DNA of 64,000 nt. It comes from a virus. Positions 2,892 to 18,286 of this stretch are shown here, piece after piece (the stretch's first letter is position 1; each line of letters opens with the position of its first letter). Made by a program: the position numbers and the translations under genes. The stretch spans positions 18,170 to 82,169 of the IMG/VR virus record IMGVR_UViG_3300004807_000018, one strand, 5' to 3'. The notes beneath the pieces are model-generated. The model was not told the origin of the DNA. It worked only from the letters and a program-made list of their open reading frames with translations, and ran no database searches.

Positions 2892-3413
2892 CTATGAATT
2901 CTTGATAACGTAGATCCTCGCCGCGTTAACAGACTTTCTAAGCTTCCGGTTTTCCTCGGTAAGTTCGCTAATTCGATCTGCCAAGCGGTTGTTTTCTTTT
3001 ATGACGTCGAGATAAAGCGCGTGCGAACTATCAAGATCAAACATGATGTCCCGAGCGATATTTGACCCATCAGCTTCGCCTGTGGCGACTCCTTCCACCT
3101 CTCTGGCTGGAATCGTCTCACACTTTTCATTAGTTTCGCTGTATCCCGCCAATCGGATCCATAATGCGATTTTCTCGGGGTTTGGTAAGGATTCTAAGCT
3201 GTGAAATCGACGCCACAAAGAATCTTGTAACCTGTGAAGTCGACGATAAAGACTTGGGCTAGTCCAGTATTCAAGGACTGCAGATTTGATTGTTGTGTAT
3301 TCAGATTTAGGGATTTTTCCGGAGTAGCTCGCAAACACAAAAGAAGCTTCTTCGTCCAAGCTCCTAAATTGGCGACGGTTGAACTGAGTGTCATGGTAGT
3401 TGATTCTTAGCAT
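2892..3413 (-). CDS. Hypothetical moron protein with C-terminal coiled coil
   Basis: 173-aa ORF in visibly AT-richer DNA; ENNRLADRISELTEENRKLRK heptads. Confidence 0.6.
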   Translation of the reverse strand: MLRINYHDTQFNRRQFRSLDEEASFVFASYSGKIPKSEYTTIKSAVLEYWTSPSLYRRLHRLQDSLWRRFHSLESLPNPEKIALWIRLAGYSETNEKCETIPAREVEGVATGEADGSNIARDIMFDLDSSHALYLDVIKENNRLADRISELTEENRKLRKSVNAARIYVIKNS

Positions 3414-3686
3414 ACTAATCGCATCCCGTTGCTTATCCCGTCCATCGTCTCTCCCTGCTCGCTGGCCGCGCTGTTATCATAAAAAAGGCTTATCGGAAAG
3501 GTTCCCGCGCCTTCTTGAGGACTTGTGACGACCTTATCGACGGCGCACCCTTTCTTCGCTCCGCACGATAAGCAAACGTTATGAAACACCGCTTTTAACC
3601 AGTTCATAGGAGTCTCCATGCGCCAAGCGTTTTCGTGCGCTTCGCGCGGTCGCCCTAAAGGGCTGAAATCTGAGGATTGGCTTTGC

Positions 3687-3719
3687 CGCCCTTCACTTCT
3701 AGTCCAGAAGTGAAGGGCG
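3687..3719. repeat. 14-bp inverted repeat (hairpin) after paralog B
   Basis: CGCCCTTCACTTCT-agtcc-AGAAGTGAAGGGCG; no clear U-tract. Confidence 0.75.
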
Positions 3720-3728
3720 TCTAGCAGA

Positions 3729-4178
3729 CTACGAGAAGGGCAAAACTTCGACTTCGAGCGCGTTCCGCGCGTCCGTGGCTACGTCCACCCTGCACGGGTA
3801 GCCAGGCGGATACCCGGCGACTGAAAGCCAGCCTTCGACAAGTTGTCCAGGGATGTCAGCCCCGATGCACTCTTCGAGCAAGTAGCCCTTGCGAGCCGTG
3901 AGGGTGAAATGTCCACCGTACGACAGATCGCGCAGCGTCCAGTTGTGGACCTTCCGGTCGTCAAACCAAACCTCAAGGGTCGCTTCTGTCTGGCTTACGT
4001 CGACATGCCCTTCGAGTCTGATCTTCGACTGGTCGAATCTGTAGGTTCGGTCAAGAACTCGACTCAGCGATGCCTGGACTTCAGGGAACCGCACGAGGTC
4101 GATCTCGTTGCCCCGTGCGGGGCGATGACAATTCACATATGGGCTCGAGATTTTCTTTCTCGGCTTTTTCTCGCTCAC
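3729..4178 (-). CDS. Unknown protein, paralog B of 5590..6039
   Basis: 149 aa; shares EIDL..[FY]PE.QASL.R.L..TY.F, LEVWF..R.VH.W.L.DL.YGG.F and WL.V.GYP.GYPCR.DV with 5590..6039. Confidence 0.8.
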   Translation of the reverse strand: MSEKKPRKKISSPYVNCHRPARGNEIDLVRFPEVQASLSRVLDRTYRFDQSKIRLEGHVDVSQTEATLEVWFDDRKVHNWTLRDLSYGGHFTLTARKGYLLEECIGADIPGQLVEGWLSVAGYPPGYPCRVDVATDARNALEVEVLPFS

Positions 4179-4232
4179 GTAATATCTCCTTCAACAGGTA
4201 CCTTCCTGTTGGTGAGATTAGTATACAAACTT

Positions 4233-5063
4233 CTACTTGTTTTGGAGTCCGATTTCAACGGCGTCTTTCTCTGACCACTTCTTCTGCAGCCAGATGAGGC
4301 CCTTGCCCGTAACAAGGGTTCGGCAGTAAACGTGCGTTTCACCTGTCTTAGCGTGCTTGTAGGACTTTTCCACAACCCGGAAGTAGCCACGCTCCACATA
4401 CTCTTGCTTCGGCACCCAAGAGCGCCCTTCCATCATCACGATGCCTTGCGCCTGAAGGAACTTCCACAACCGCTGCTCGCCGGTCTTCAGCACCTTGGCA
4501 ACCTCGTTAACCACCTGAGCCTCGACTGCGCCCGCTACGTGGTCATGGAACTCCACGACAGGAGCAAGCGCCTTCATCTTCATCTCTAGCGCCTCTTTGG
4601 CCTCCAGTTCGGCGGCATAAGCTCGCAGCGCCTCAGGCAGAGACTTCGGCAGATCGGTCTTGAGCTCCGCCTCACGGGTCTTAATCGCGAAGTAGGTTTG
4701 AGCGGCTGCAATCTCGGGCTTGCGAGGATCGCCGTTCATCGCCACGAGGTAAGCAGCGTAGCGGGTCAGGTGGAAATCGGCTACGGGTATCTGTATCCCG
4801 CCGTGTCGATTGCGACTGTCCTTGATTTTCGTGGCGTCACGAAAAGCTAGAACTACATCTTGTCCAACGTTCGAGGCGGCTGCCCTTGCGCGGTCGATGC
4901 TCTCGGAGAAGTTTTCCCACCGGTCGTACCCAAGAATGGGCATCAAGTCTCGAGCGCTCCAATACTCGGAGCCGTCTTCTCGCACTTTCCGAATCAAGTC
5001 AAACGGAGACGTAATGGCGGAGGATTGACCTCCTGTGGCAAGATAGGTTTCTTTTGTGTTCAT
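4233..5063 (-). CDS. ant: Phage antirepressor: DinD/Bro-N-like N-terminal domain plus ANT/KilA-C C-terminal domain
   Basis: EYWSARDLMPILGYDRWENF...FHLTRYAAYLVAMNGDPRKPEIAAAQTYFA (DinD-like); LPKSLPEALRAYA linker; PKQEYVERGYF...TLVTGKGLIWL (KilA-C). Start at ATG 5063 with GAGGGG SD. Confidence 0.9.
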   Translation of the reverse strand: MNTKETYLATGGQSSAITSPFDLIRKVREDGSEYWSARDLMPILGYDRWENFSESIDRARAAASNVGQDVVLAFRDATKIKDSRNRHGGIQIPVADFHLTRYAAYLVAMNGDPRKPEIAAAQTYFAIKTREAELKTDLPKSLPEALRAYAAELEAKEALEMKMKALAPVVEFHDHVAGAVEAQVVNEVAKVLKTGEQRLWKFLQAQGIVMMEGRSWVPKQEYVERGYFRVVEKSYKHAKTGETHVYCRTLVTGKGLIWLQKKWSEKDAVEIGLQNK

Positions 5064-5178
5064 GGCTGTTACCCCCTCGTACGGGTATTGGCTCACGGGC
5101 GGTGGTAACGACACCGCCCGCTTTGTTCTAGAACCAGGGCCGAGCCTAGGCCCAAATCATGAGTGCTCGTTAAAAGGC

Positions 5179-5621
5179 GCTACGTCGATCGACATGCAAT
5201 TTCGTGCTCCCCGATATTGGGGACCTCAAATCTTCATAGTCGACGCTCAGGACGTACTCGGTTCTGACTCCTCGATTTCCCGCTCCCCGATTTTGGGGAG
5301 CGGTGTCCTCATATGTCGCATAGCCAGCGCCGTCCACAAAACCGTATTGATGGAACCGATCTCGTGGCGAACGATTGCCGAGTTTAAGATGTGATTGCTC
5401 AAAATTGTCCTCGCAAATAGAACGACAAAAATGCCCAAAAGGGGCACCAGATCATTTTCCCGGCGCCGGGAAAATGATCTGGTGCCAGTCGCCGAGCCTG
5501 TCCGTGGCGGATCATCTTGCTGGTGTCAGCAAGATGATCGCCATCCTCGATGACCAAGTCTTTCGCGTGTGTGTTCATCGTCGTCAGCGCTAGTTGAAGG
5601 GAGCTACGTCGATCGACATGC
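5179..5621. repeat. Palindrome array bracketed by 19-bp direct repeats
   Basis: DR GCTACGTCGATCGACATGC at 5179-5197 and 5603-5621. Hairpins at 5199-5231, 5280-5303, 5405-5428 (weak), 5443-5486 (perfect 44 bp) and 5510-5539. Confidence 0.9.
5200..5364 (-). pseudogene. AntA/AntB antirepressor-like fragment without an upstream start codon
   Basis: Hand translation RDRFHQYGFVDGAGYATYEDTAPQNRGAGNRGVRTEYVLSVDYEDLRSPISGSTK resembles the AntA pattern RI..YGF.EG.DY...(variable)...EY.L(T/S).D. Confidence 0.6.
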
Positions 5622-6039
5622 CGTTCTTGGCGTCTACAGACACGTCGATTCGGCAGGGATAACCTGCGGGATATCCCGACACTTCTAGCCACTCATTGGC
5701 GAATCGGTCTGGCAGATTGCGCTTTGCGCTTGCATCTAGCGACCTTCCGGGGCGAGCGATCACGACAAAGTCGCCACCGTAAGCGAGGTCCTTTAGGTTC
5801 CAGTAGTGGACTCTTCTTTCTCCAAACCAGACTTCAAGATCGGCTTCGGTTTCGCCAGGGTTGACGATCCCGCTGATCTTCAAATCGTCAAGATTGAATC
5901 CGTAGGTCTTTTCCAAGATTCGCTTTAGCGATGCTTGTGCCTCTGGATAATGGGCAAGGTCAATTTCTCCGACCGTGACCGGGCGTCCGATTTTGACGAA
6001 AGGACTAATACTCTTTGCCTTGGCTGTTACACTCTTCAT
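5590..6039 (-). CDS. Unknown protein, paralog A of 3729..4178
   Basis: 149 aa from ATG 6039 (MKSVTAK...), same length as paralog B and colinear with it. Confidence 0.8.
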   Translation of the reverse strand: MKSVTAKAKSISPFVKIGRPVTVGEIDLAHYPEAQASLKRILEKTYGFNLDDLKISGIVNPGETEADLEVWFGERRVHYWNLKDLAYGGDFVVIARPGRSLDASAKRNLPDRFANEWLEVSGYPAGYPCRIDVSVDAKNGMSIDVAPFN

Positions 6040-6118
6040 GTGCTTGCGCTCAGTTCGCAGGCATCGCGCCTCGGGATGGTCGAGCATCGCCGGGGCTTTT
6101 CTTTGCCTGACTGATCGT

Positions 6119-6156
6119 ATTATACACGTATATAAACGTATTCATGCGTGTATAAT
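6119..6156. promoter_or_regulatory. Divergent promoter/operator between paralog A and the RHH gene
   Basis: Inverted repeat ATTATACACG...CGTGTATAAT gives a TATAAT on each strand in an AT-rich gap. Confidence 0.55.
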
Positions 6157-6384
6157 GCTTTTATGAGCGATATGACGCTAAAATCATCCATGCCTCGGAA
6201 GGCCACGGGAATCAAGCGAAAGCCAGTCACTGTCACCCTAGACACGGACACAAGAACCAAGCTTGAATTTGTCGCCTCCGAATACGGGTATAGCTTGAGT
6301 CTGTTCCTTGAACGAGCCGGCTTGTGGTACGCCAAAGAGATCGAAAAGGACCCTTCTAAACTGCGCCAGCCTGCGGAAGACTGA
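6148..6384 (+). CDS. Ribbon-helix-helix (CopG/Arc-like) regulator
   Basis: RKPVTVTLDTDTRTKLEFVASEYGYSLSLFLE; true start probably ATG 6163 or 6190. Confidence 0.7.
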   Translation: MYNAFMSDMTLKSSMPRKATGIKRKPVTVTLDTDTRTKLEFVASEYGYSLSLFLERAGLWYAKEIEKDPSKLRQPAED

Positions 6385-6405
6385 CTCGTGGCGTAAAATG
6401 CCGTC

Positions 6406-7197
6406 GTGCTTCAACAAGCAAAGTACTGCGCTCGTTGCCGTTCTGCATGCCATCCATCAATGGCTTTTTGTCCTCAGTGCGGGCAACCTTTCGCGGTTGC
6501 GCAACCGACCTATGCGCCGGTCCAGCCTGCAGCAGCGATTCCACGAACGACCAAAGATCCGGTCGAGTGGAGGTTGTCTGTCGTGTGGCACTGGATCTTT
6601 CTCACGATTGCCACTCTTGCGGCTATCGTGACACTTCAGTACGTCTGCGGGACTTTTCAGGCGTTCTACGCTGAGCGATCGACCGGTGTCAGCAATTCGT
6701 TTGCTGACTGGTTCATCTCAAGAATGGCTTGGATCGCAGCGCTTGGTTTCGTGGTCTCATGCGCGGCTGTCACCTTCATAGGCACGCGCCTAAGGCGACT
6801 CTACGTCTATGAAGCGCCTTATTATTCGGAGTGGAAGAACGCTTTCTGCGGCTACGCTTTTGCGCTCTTTGTGTTTGTTGTTGGAGACGGCCTGCTGACC
6901 CACACCCTTGGAGGCCTTACCCCTTCCTCTGATGGTCAAGGATTCAAACAGGGAATGTCCGAACAAGAAGTGATGAGGGCATTTCCAGATCAGTCGCTCA
7001 CGCCTCGCTCGTATCCTCCAAACAGCCAGATCGAAACCTACGGCGTGTTTGTTGGAACTGGAGACGAGTCGATCGCGGCTGACCTATCGTCGAAGAAGAC
7101 TGCCATGTTTGTGTTTTCTCAAGGGCGTCTTGTTTCAGAGTCGGTTTGCACCTTTACTGACGGCTCAAATATGCCTACCGTCGAACGAGTCTTTTAG
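6406..7197 (+). CDS. Zinc-ribbon membrane protein (moron; possible superinfection exclusion)
   Basis: N-terminal CxxC...FCPQCG; three hydrophobic segments; C-terminal FKQGMSEQEV (SmpA/BamE-like start). Oriented opposite to the late operon. Confidence 0.65.
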   Translation: MLQQAKYCARCRSACHPSMAFCPQCGQPFAVAQPTYAPVQPAAAIPRTTKDPVEWRLSVVWHWIFLTIATLAAIVTLQYVCGTFQAFYAERSTGVSNSFADWFISRMAWIAALGFVVSCAAVTFIGTRLRRLYVYEAPYYSEWKNAFCGYAFALFVFVVGDGLLTHTLGGLTPSSDGQGFKQGMSEQEVMRAFPDQSLTPRSYPPNSQIETYGVFVGTGDESIAADLSSKKTAMFVFSQGRLVSESVCTFTDGSNMPTVERVF

Positions 7198-13243: not shown

Positions 13244-13265
13244 GGCCCGGGGGATCCCCCGGGCC
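13244..13265 (-). terminator. GC-rich palindrome after the capsid/decoration genes (probable terminator)
   Basis: GGCCCGGGGGATCCCCCGGGCC is a perfect palindrome, followed by ACTTTC on the minus strand. Confidence 0.55.
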
Positions 13266-17266: not shown

Positions 17267-17290
17267 GATCGTGAGGGAGCAAAATGAGCA

Positions 17291-17320
17291 GGGGTCCGAA
17301 GCGGTATTGCTTCGGACCCC
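17291..17320. terminator. 12-bp stem hairpin, possible terminator of the inserted gene block
   Basis: GGGGTCCGAAGC-ggtatt-GCTTCGGACCCC. Confidence 0.55.
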
Positions 17321-17349
17321 TGGGGGTGTGATCAGAGCTAAGCTTTGGG

Positions 17350-18286
17350 TCAGCCGGTCGTAACCGGACCTGGGGCAAGAGGAATGCTTCCGCTTCCAGA
17401 CTTGTCGCCCTTCACCATCATCGACGCGGCAATCAGAGTGGTCGCCAGCGCCTCAGCAGAGGACGGAGAGATCGGGATGTCGAGCTTCTGGTCGTCCCAC
17501 TCGACAACTACGTGGACGTTGTGGTCGCTGGCCGTAAGGACCAGGATCTTGACGTCGCTAACCCGGTTCTTTGGCGATAGGTGTTCGTGCGGTACAAGCA
17601 TCAGTAAACTTTTCCTCTGGCCGTCTGGCCCATCACCACGTCACGGACGTAGACGTCTTGGCTGTCGCCGTGGTCTTCGATCTTCATGACCCAGGACCAA
17701 ACGTCGTTGACAAAACAGCGCTCGCCTTCCCTGGTGTGCTTTGTCGGCCAGTCCTCTAGGACCATCAAGGGAGTGAGAGGCGGATCGCCTTCTTCAAGCT
17801 GCGGTGGGTCGTTGTCCCAGTAGCGAATGGTGCAGGGCATCAGGCCCGCGCCTTCCGTTTTTTCAGGGTGTAGGCAACCTGCCACAACCCATGTACGCAA
17901 CGGTAGTCGTGGTCAAGGACGCCGACTTTGGTAAACCAAGCGAATAGCCCAACCCATAAGAAACTGGCGCACCAAACAAGGGTGAGCCAGACCGAAAGCC
18001 GCAACGCATTGAGATTGCCCTCGCAATAGATCGAGTTGCACAAGAGCAGCCGCGAACAGGCACTTACGTTTGCTGGAAGTGGAACTTTTACGAAAGCGTG
18101 TGGAACAATGCCTTGGCCCTCTAGCTCTCTGCTCACCGCAATCGGAAGCCAGCGCCATCCGCCGTCTTCATAGGTCAGATGCTTTTGGTGCGGGTCAAAC
18201 CGACAAATACGAGACCTGACCGAAAACGCGCCAATTGGGATGCGCGAACAGGTGTACGCGCGATTGACGTGGATTGTACTGGCCAT
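17350..18286 (-). CDS. Three small coupled hypothetical genes (17350..17601, 17601..~17841, 17840..18286)
   Basis: Stop/start overlaps on the late strand; no recognisable motifs. Confidence 0.45.

Follow-up and report, generated by a model that had tools for sequence, protein, structure and literature searches.

This report concerns a group of DNA palindromes at an antirepressor gene carried by the virus record IMGVR_UViG_3300004807_000018. The window, that is, the whole stretch of 64,000 nucleotides that was analysed (positions 18,170 to 82,169 of the record), belongs to a viral contig of 82 kb in IMG/VR, and the phage to which it belongs was recovered in four freshwater metagenomes, as Logan contigs from four runs. 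On the minus strand the locus reads gene B (5590-6039), a spacer of 526 bp, the antirepressor gene (4233-5063) and gene A (3729-4178). One palindrome lies within the coding sequence of the antirepressor gene and four others lie in the spacer upstream of it; it is close to certain that these four units are orphan copies of a coding palindrome that occurs family-wide at one block of codons. The features on which this conclusion is built are the following.

4233-5063, minus strand: antirepressor gene (276 aa, intact), with a DinD/Bro-N-type N-terminal domain and an ANT (KilAC) C-terminal domain, as detected with Pfam, NCBIfam and PHROG
4826-4845, minus strand: in-gene coding palindrome, 8-bp arms and 4-nt loop, encoding AFRDATKI (residues 73-80); -13.9 kcal/mol
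5173-5448, minus strand: decayed AntA-domain frame, 92 open codons without a start codon, detected by a weak Pfam AntA match and by our own profile
5199-5231, no strand assigned: AntA-type palindrome with a TCCCC-N6-GGGGA core, 5 perfect pairs and decayed outer arms; -12.8 kcal/mol
5280-5303, no strand assigned: AntA-type palindrome occupying the variable position in the AntA relic, with 9-bp arms and a 6-nt loop; -21.2 kcal/mol
5443-5486, no strand assigned: DinD-type orphan, perfect 44-bp palindrome that reads DHFPGAGKMI, with the minus-strand tail CCUUUUGGGCAUUUUU; -41.7 kcal/mol
5510-5539, no strand assigned: DinD-type orphan, 13-bp arms and 4-nt loop, reading DHLADTSKMI, 51 nt past the gene B stop codon; -27.3 kcal/mol

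The antirepressor gene matches Pfam Bro-N (PF02498) over residues 24-125 with 36 bits against a cut-off of 25.6 bits (37.5 bits in a second run), and Pfam ANT (PF03374) over residues 161-264 with 90.1 bits against a cut-off of 25.3 bits; its PHROG label is 'anti-repressor Ant'. The N-terminal part also aligns with positions 9-156 of the 288 positions of the NCBIfam DinD model (NF008573), with an E value of 9.4e-41 and 140 bits. Judged by these profile scores the N-terminal domain is DinD-like and the protein is not a DinD equivalog, given that 140 bits fall below the full-length cut-off of 242 bits.

Palindromes of the spacer and their assembly

The palindromes had been described in an initial annotation of this DNA, and their positions and translations were found to be correct. 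A weaker palindrome proposed at 5405-5428 does not rise above chance, having just 5 perfect pairs; the other palindromes described exceed what is expected by chance. The pattern GATCAT-N18-ATGATC is present twice in the 64 kb, both times at this locus, when 0.15 occurrences are expected, and GCTCCCCGATWTTGGGGA is found in the window solely at the two AntA-type sites (0.12 expected). Likewise, the window has 8 palindromes with arms of at least 9 bp, and 3 of them are located inside 260 bp of this spacer. Each unit is single-copy across the 82-kb record; a search of the window for the in-gene palindrome that tolerated 3 mismatches found it at its own position only.

A perfect palindrome of 44 bp could raise doubts about the assembly. 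The one at 5443-5486 is not an assembly artefact, because contigs from a second freshwater sample cross its centre and continue into unique DNA on both sides. In two runs of the source sample (X1 and X3), the de Bruijn contigs end exactly at 5443-5486, and a separate 44-nt contig of the palindrome is present. Perfect palindromes longer than the k-mer break assemblies, so that orphan units of this kind may be under-reported.

A coding palindrome common to DinD/Bro-N genes

Homologs of the antirepressor gene were collected by peptide patterns from one virus collection, giving a set of 80 loci with 35-60% identity. For each of them the palindrome axis was picked as the best one within 24 nt on either side, a procedure that inflates the pairing somewhat; the random-segment and codon-resampling controls are independent of this choice. 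In nearly all of the 80 loci the DNA that aligns with AFRDATKI forms a palindrome, its sequence differing from one locus to another, and perfect arms of at least 8 bp are present at the aligned block in 46% of the homologs versus 1.2% of segments drawn at random from these loci. When 60 sequences were placed in a gap-free alignment of 28 nt, 85% of the arm cells were paired, as compared with 58% in shuffled alignments and 37-57% in controls slid along the sequence; double-sided changes were counted in 197 cells versus 71 expected, a value that none of 500 shuffles reached. The in-gene palindrome of the window and the two DinD-type orphans align without gaps to 57 in-gene palindromes. All three fit the DinD-type class, defined by a palindrome that lies before GGRP, an axis between two bases and outer arms of the form TTT...AAA. 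Among the 65 distinct homologs the axis of symmetry falls between two bases in 63 and on a base in 2, and in 60 of them 8 or more of the 11 arm positions are paired, the remaining five pairing 7 of 11. It had been suggested that DH[FL]xxxxKM[IV] is the variable segment of DinD-like domains and is encoded by a palindrome; the nucleotide alignment upholds the second part for the whole family, whereas the peptide pattern turned out to be one allele class of the more general form F-x4-[K/E].

The nature of this conservation can be approached from the codons. The palindrome is read in two codon phases, which give peptides of the FPGAGK type and of the FSRxRE type; two phases for one kind of palindrome indicate that it is the DNA, and not the peptide, that is conserved. 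When the peptides were kept fixed and synonymous codons were resampled, 6.12 of 12 pairs were expected and 9.95 were observed, with 89% of the genes above the 95th percentile of their resampled sets. Mismatches in the arms comprise 14 G-T, 12 A-C and 36 of other kinds, that is, there is no bias towards G-U wobble pairs, and about 60% of the sequences retain complementarity at the centre of the palindrome, where no pairing could take place in a hairpin. The lack of a G-U preference together with the complementary centre points to a symmetry at the level of DNA rather than to a hairpin of the sense-strand RNA.

The in-gene palindrome of the window shares its 8-nt arms with three homologs (L058 at 4121-4148, L073 and L076), and its 4-nt loop is reverse-complemented with respect to theirs (ACGC versus GCGT). 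In the comparison of the window with L058 this flip means that G-V becomes D-A, as a hairpin-loop inversion would produce. No clear case of an empty site lacking the palindrome was found among the 65 distinct homologs, and a comparison of left and right identities among 61 homologs gave no discordant pairs that would indicate recombination breakpoints at the palindrome. Contigs of the four runs contain no variant alleles at 4826-4845, bearing in mind that contigs drop rare variants.

In both domain families the palindrome occupies the codons of the strand that opens a beta-hairpin, directly ahead of the conserved GGRP motif. In the AlphaFold model of the antirepressor (pLDDT 86.6) the block at 4826-4845 codes for strand 74-79, predicted to be the first of a beta-hairpin (74-99) that follows two helices in a winged-helix-like layout; the tip of this hairpin (80-93) is poorly predicted. 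A PDB sequence match was not found for the protein, and Foldseek returned none below an E value of 0.19. Weak likenesses were obtained with VIA-align to Dachshund (Z 4.9), the N-terminal domain of DdrC (Z 4.4) and Mbp1 (Z 4.3), all of them below Z 5 and non-significant. The palindrome is also carried by cultured phages, namely at codon 75 of gp60 of the Mycobacterium phage Acquire49 and at codon 83 of gp47 of the Gordonia phage BaxterFox. A blastn search of the antirepressor N-terminal domain against E. coli genomes gave no match.

The DinD-type orphan units

The central part of the 44-bp palindrome (5451-5478) is nearly identical to the family consensus of the 28-nt alignment. Its 18-nt core was found at 24 places in IMG/VR, and 17 of these are in DinD-like genes, at this codon block; the 17 include a perfect coding palindrome of 38 bp that reads DHFPGAGKMV (L109) and one of 34 bp that reads DHFPGAGKVI (L019). 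The unit at 5510-5539 has a sole near-copy in IMG/VR (27 of 30 bases), which is free-standing too and lies upstream of an XRE-type gene (L196). The idea that the upstream units are copies of palindromic variable segments is borne out by the presence of the 5443-5486 core in DinD-like genes and of 5282-5301 in AntA genes.

For both DinD-type orphans the likeness to DinD genes stops exactly at the ten codons of the palindrome. A blastn-short comparison of 5390-5600 with the antirepressor gene detected just chance matches of 7-9 nt; one of 9 nt, ATGAACACA, at 5570-5578 and at the start of the antirepressor gene, was considered and set aside as chance level (E 0.5). A profile of the DinD N-terminal domain built from the homologs gave no six-frame piece above 0.1 bits, either in 5064-5600 or in the spacer of locus L037; the variable block being too short and variable for a profile, the orphans were compared at the DNA level.

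Few of the homologs have a comparable arrangement: at about 60 of the 65 distinct loci no extra unit was found within 4 kb. In L037 and L038 two orphan units lie upstream of a DinD/ANT gene that is truncated at its 5' end and located downstream of two intact Bro-N genes. At this locus (L037:3700-4100, and alike in L038) the gene lacks a start codon and about the first 55 codons, and a terminator-like hairpin also precedes it; one of the two orphans shares with the gene's own block an 18-nt core that includes an asymmetric loop. A similar orphan unit is present in L104. Free-standing DinD-type palindromes were also seen upstream of XRE-type helix-turn-helix genes on unrelated contigs, as two adjacent units at L101:8609-8670 and as a single one at L196:2232-2261.

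In a transcript of the minus strand one DinD-type unit gives a hairpin of -27.3 kcal/mol, 51 nt past the gene B stop, and the other a hairpin of -41.7 kcal/mol, 104 nt past it. After the second hairpin comes the U-rich tail CCUUUUGGGCAUUUUU, in which the U-tract is interrupted and 4 of the first 8 bases are U. From these sequence features a role of the two units as terminator or attenuator is plausible.

The AntA-type units and the relic frame

The other two units belong to a different domain family. The frame at 5173-5448 matches Pfam AntA (PF08346) with 17.3 bits and an E value of 0.0075, below the gathering cut-off of 27 bits, and it was the sole match among the six-frame pieces of the spacer to a profile built from 57 AntA genes (16.4 bits, E 2.3e-5). 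It is classed as a decayed AntA relic and not as a member gene. That the variable segment of AntA domains would also be encoded by a palindrome had been proposed, and it holds: at the variable block of AntA genes perfect arms of at least 8 bp are present in 35%, versus 2.8% of controls. Three intact AntA genes (L202, L232 and L249) have in-gene palindromes identical to the 20-nt core 5282-5301, and 32 of the 71 hits of the AntA pattern in IMG/VR are inside AntA genes. The units at 5199-5231 and 5280-5303 are copies within a tandem duplication of about 50 nt with a period of 76 bp. The possibility that TCCCC-N6-GGGGA represents repressor operators was considered and dropped in view of the identity of these units to AntA in-gene palindromes.

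The initial annotation had also inferred that mostly variable segments, and not whole genes, were collected here. This is right for both DinD-type units, which consist of the palindrome only; the AntA-type units lie inside a decayed AntA frame.

As a side observation, 40 of the 71 occurrences of GCTCCCC-N6-GGGGAGC in IMG/VR are outside recognisable AntA genes, some of them in giant-virus bins (the GVMAG contigs L198, L210 and L219), and a recurrent form among these non-AntA palindromes is CTTGCTCCCC...GGGGAGCAAG. They may be orphans, or they may come from other domain families.

Neighbouring genes and other features of the locus

The surroundings of the antirepressor gene contain the following additional features.

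5590-6039, minus strand: gene B, an ORFan and a paralog of gene A (3729-4178), with 45% identity between the two (E 9e-53)
5157-5207, minus strand: relic of a third A/B ORFan paralog, covering its 13 C-terminal codons and the region of the stop, detected as a repeat and with tblastn
6119-6384, plus strand: inverted repeat 6119-6156 (I9) and divergent 73-aa gene 6163-6384, ribbon-helix-helix-like, upstream of gene B
5096-5120, no strand assigned: hairpin of another type than the coding palindromes, with a stem of 10 bp and a loop of 7 nt, located 33-57 nt before the antirepressor start codon; -19.9 kcal/mol

Genes A and B gave no Pfam, NCBIfam or PHROG match, and no homolog of them was found in viral contigs or among 5.8 billion proteins. 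The relic of the third paralog was recognised from a direct repeat (D1) in which 5157-5197 and 5581-5621 are 83% identical, and from a tblastn match of ARNCMSIDVAPFN to AKNGMSIDVAPFN of gene B (E 6e-5). The flanking ORFan paralogs and the relic of a third copy suggest repeated modules formed by a paralog and an antirepressor.

The inverted repeat at 6119-6156 has arms of 13 nt and overlaps a TATAAT-like hexamer between gene B and the 73-aa gene. This gene has as protein-atlas neighbours the RHH_1, CopG and TacA clusters, with values of 0.94-0.95, and no Pfam match; its identification as a ribbon-helix-helix regulator is only a lead. The hairpin at 5096-5120 has a T-rich tail on the plus strand and could act as a terminator for transcripts antisense to the start or ribosome-binding site of the antirepressor gene, in the manner of the sar RNA of P22; no promoter for such an antisense RNA was identified there. 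Further strong palindromes of the window are a perfect 22-mer in the region of structural genes (13244-13265) and two intergenic hairpins with 14-bp arms (17289-17322 and 3687-3719), one of which directly follows gene A; these three are probably terminators. Close relatives of this phage were not found, the best homolog of the antirepressor being 49% identical.

Comparison with known systems

The nearest published analogue is found in the mitochondrial genes of Nematomorpha (hairworms), whose coding sequences contain many inverted repeats that are long (up to 284 bp) and scattered (Mikhailov et al. 2019, PMC6649704). The two cases share perfect or nearly perfect repeats in coding sequence, the translation of both arms and a maintenance at the DNA level that shapes the protein. 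They differ in that here a single palindrome of 20-44 bp is present at a fixed block of codons, in phages and prophages, varies from gene to gene and has free-standing copies.

Correction of quasi-palindromes by template switching during replication, as in the model of Ripley or in the small hairpin-loop inversions of chloroplast genomes, would explain the perfect arms, self-complementary centres, between-base axes, paired changes and loop flips. It is a mutational mechanism that acts at scattered sites, and it is not known to hold a palindrome at one codon block across a protein family. The immI region of P22 (mnt, arc, ant and the antisense RNA sar) resembles this locus in having an antirepressor downstream of a divergent gene, here ribbon-helix-helix-like as a lead only, the two being separated by an inverted repeat. 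Unlike the protein of this window, Ant of P22 does not have the DinD/Bro-N and ANT make-up, and we know of no palindrome array in P22 immI; as for the hairpins in the antirepressor leader, these could limit expression. The DinD-type units have in common with intrinsic terminators that they are GC-containing hairpins directly past a stop codon, the second with a U-rich tract, but the stem of the second has 22 perfect pairs, its sequence is a copied coding block of another gene family and the U-tract is interrupted.

In the silent donor loci of Neisseria (pilE/pilS) and Borrelia (vlsE/vls), the donors have conserved flanks shared with the expression site, and variant populations are detectable. 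As in those systems, the units of the window are promoterless partial copies, restricted to the variable segment and clustered upstream of an expressed gene; in contrast, they have no flanking homology and two of them belong to another domain family.

In baculoviruses the many near-identical copies of the hr units found in each genome are enhancers and origins bound by IE-1. These regions are arrays of imperfect palindromes of about 30 bp, often located beside bro (Bro-N) genes, with a variable copy number and surroundings prone to rearrangement (PMC4758234). The likeness lies in palindrome arrays near genes of the Bro-N family and is one of geometry and neighbourhood only. The units of this window are single-copy, different from one another and match in-gene codon blocks, and a link between hr and the coding sequence of bro is absent from the same source (PMC4758234).

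Interpretation of the locus

The explanation that we favour, with a confidence slightly better than even when it is taken as a whole, is that the spacer contains the leftovers of former antirepressor genes whose palindromes were kept by a process at the DNA level, the DinD-type pair serving as terminator or attenuator. The slot between gene B and the antirepressor gene would formerly have held other antirepressor genes, of the DinD and AntA types, and would have been rebuilt several times; traces of rearrangement in this slot are the relic of the third paralog and the tandem duplication with a period of 76 bp. The former genes would have been deleted or decayed, and their palindromes would have outlasted them. 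Since the palindromes are perfect while their flanks are gone or decayed, they appear to be kept by a process that does not depend on coding, which could be selection for the hairpin, self-templated correction of one arm from the other (template switching) or the two together. The perfect centres, the axes between two bases and the loop flip with respect to L058 would all follow from template switching. A less certain step is the last one, in which the DinD-type hairpins would now, probably, terminate or attenuate transcription between gene B and the antirepressor gene and limit read-through.

Several points weigh against this explanation. A scan for terminators missed the 44-bp hairpin itself and flagged a small overlapping one (5448-5430), and a perfect stem of 22 bp far exceeds what termination needs. 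Decay in place should leave some flanking likeness around the DinD-type units, and none was seen; a precise trimming, an outward growth of the palindromes or a movement of the units must therefore be assumed. Maintenance by template switching is itself inferred from the perfect centres and between-base axes. Finally, the homologs come from one collection by means of peptide patterns, and the choice of the best axis within 24 nt inflates their pairing somewhat.

Other explanations account for part of these observations. The symmetry at the DNA level, with no G-U bias, a between-base axis in 63 of 65 sequences and a centre complementary in about 60%, would also be expected if the units were symmetric sites, in double-stranded or cruciform DNA, for a dimer of a Bro-N/AntA-type domain or of another regulator; the in-gene copy would then be a self-operator or roadblock, and the orphans extra operators or decoys in the antirepressor leader. 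The block is modelled as the first strand of a beta-hairpin after two helices, in a winged-helix-like arrangement, the fold has a weak likeness to DNA-binding domains (Dachshund, the DdrC N-terminal domain and Mbp1), and downstream of the free-standing units of L101 and L196 there are XRE-type regulator genes. Nevertheless, we regard this as unlikely, given that the five units of the window differ, so that a single protein could use only their shared TTT...AAA frame, that the gene's own palindrome lacks a second copy in the window at up to 3 mismatches and that extra copies within 4 kb are missing from most homolog loci; the fold matches, moreover, are below Z 5 and non-significant. A broader proposal is that the palindrome is a functional DNA element (a cruciform, a hairpin or a two-fold symmetric site) and that the domain which recognises it is the one whose DNA-contacting beta-hairpin it encodes, with gene and site diversifying together and the free-standing copies acting as extra binding platforms or as templates whose switching rewrites the wing segment; we consider this doubtful.

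The same copies could be thought of as silent cassettes that donate the variable wing segment by gene conversion or templated switching and so retune specificity, as the initial annotation had put forward. They are indeed alternative alleles of the exact variable block, 380-700 bp upstream of the gene; an orphan of L037/L038 shares its 18-nt core and asymmetric loop with the block of the gene next to it, and the equal arms with a reverse-complemented loop in L058 suggest that small templated flips do happen. However, the DinD-type units share with the gene, outside the palindrome, only chance matches of 7-9 nt, which leaves homologous gene conversion without a substrate; two of the four units are of the AntA type and cannot serve a DinD-type gene, arrays are absent at about 60 of 65 distinct homolog loci, and the AntA-type units lie in a decaying frame, one being itself decayed, unlike what is expected of a maintained library. 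This use of the units is very improbable. An equally low probability is given to mobile palindromic elements (REP-, MITE- or RPE-like) that would insert into a permissive wing loop and into intergenic DNA. The Rickettsia palindromic elements, which insert in frame into genes, are a precedent for this, and it agrees with the sharp edges of the DinD-type orphans, which lack any gene flank, and with near-identical units in genes and free-standing across unrelated contigs; but the palindrome looks ancestral and not inserted, with no clear empty site among the 65 homologs, no target-site duplications were seen at the units, each of these is single-copy in the 82-kb record where REP, BIME and MITE elements have many copies, and the sequences are too diverse for a single element family. 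A further proposal is a structured leader or small RNA, in which the hairpins would act beyond termination (in processing or stability) and the in-gene palindrome would form a hairpin in the mRNA. In its favour, a folding energy of -229 kcal/mol with a z-score of -8.3 was obtained for the minus-strand RNA of 561 nt, every unit is a stable hairpin and the arms covary strongly. This low energy is simply a consequence of the palindromes; Rfam 15 gave no match at E <=1 on either strand of 3000-7000, G-U pairs are no commoner than A-C mismatches, and the loops are always even and often self-complementary, neither of which RNA folding requires. The proposal of a structured leader RNA, also present in the initial annotation, thus finds no backing in Rfam or in a wobble bias, and it is highly improbable.

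Relevance of the coding palindrome

In full-text searches of the literature, coding palindromes were not found described for Bro-N, KilA-N, DinD or antirepressor genes. A palindrome that is found at one codon block in two large families of antirepressor and DNA-damage-inducible proteins must have a DNA-level role that has yet to be named; it is retained at the cost of amino-acid changes and of codon preference, and it outlives the genes that carried it. The value of this locus resides in showing, side by side, the in-gene palindrome and orphan copies of both family types, and in the persistence of palindromes that are free of coding constraint, one of them as a perfect 44-mer. A third point of interest is its position in the leader of an antirepressor, which is the trigger of prophage induction; the carriage of the palindrome by the cultured phages Acquire49 and BaxterFox makes its function directly testable. 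If the palindrome is a binding site, a hotspot of recombination or template switching, or an attenuator, it would represent a new layer in the control of induction and in the diversification of temperate phages, and it would account for the recurrent and so far unexplained intergenic palindromes near defence and regulatory genes.

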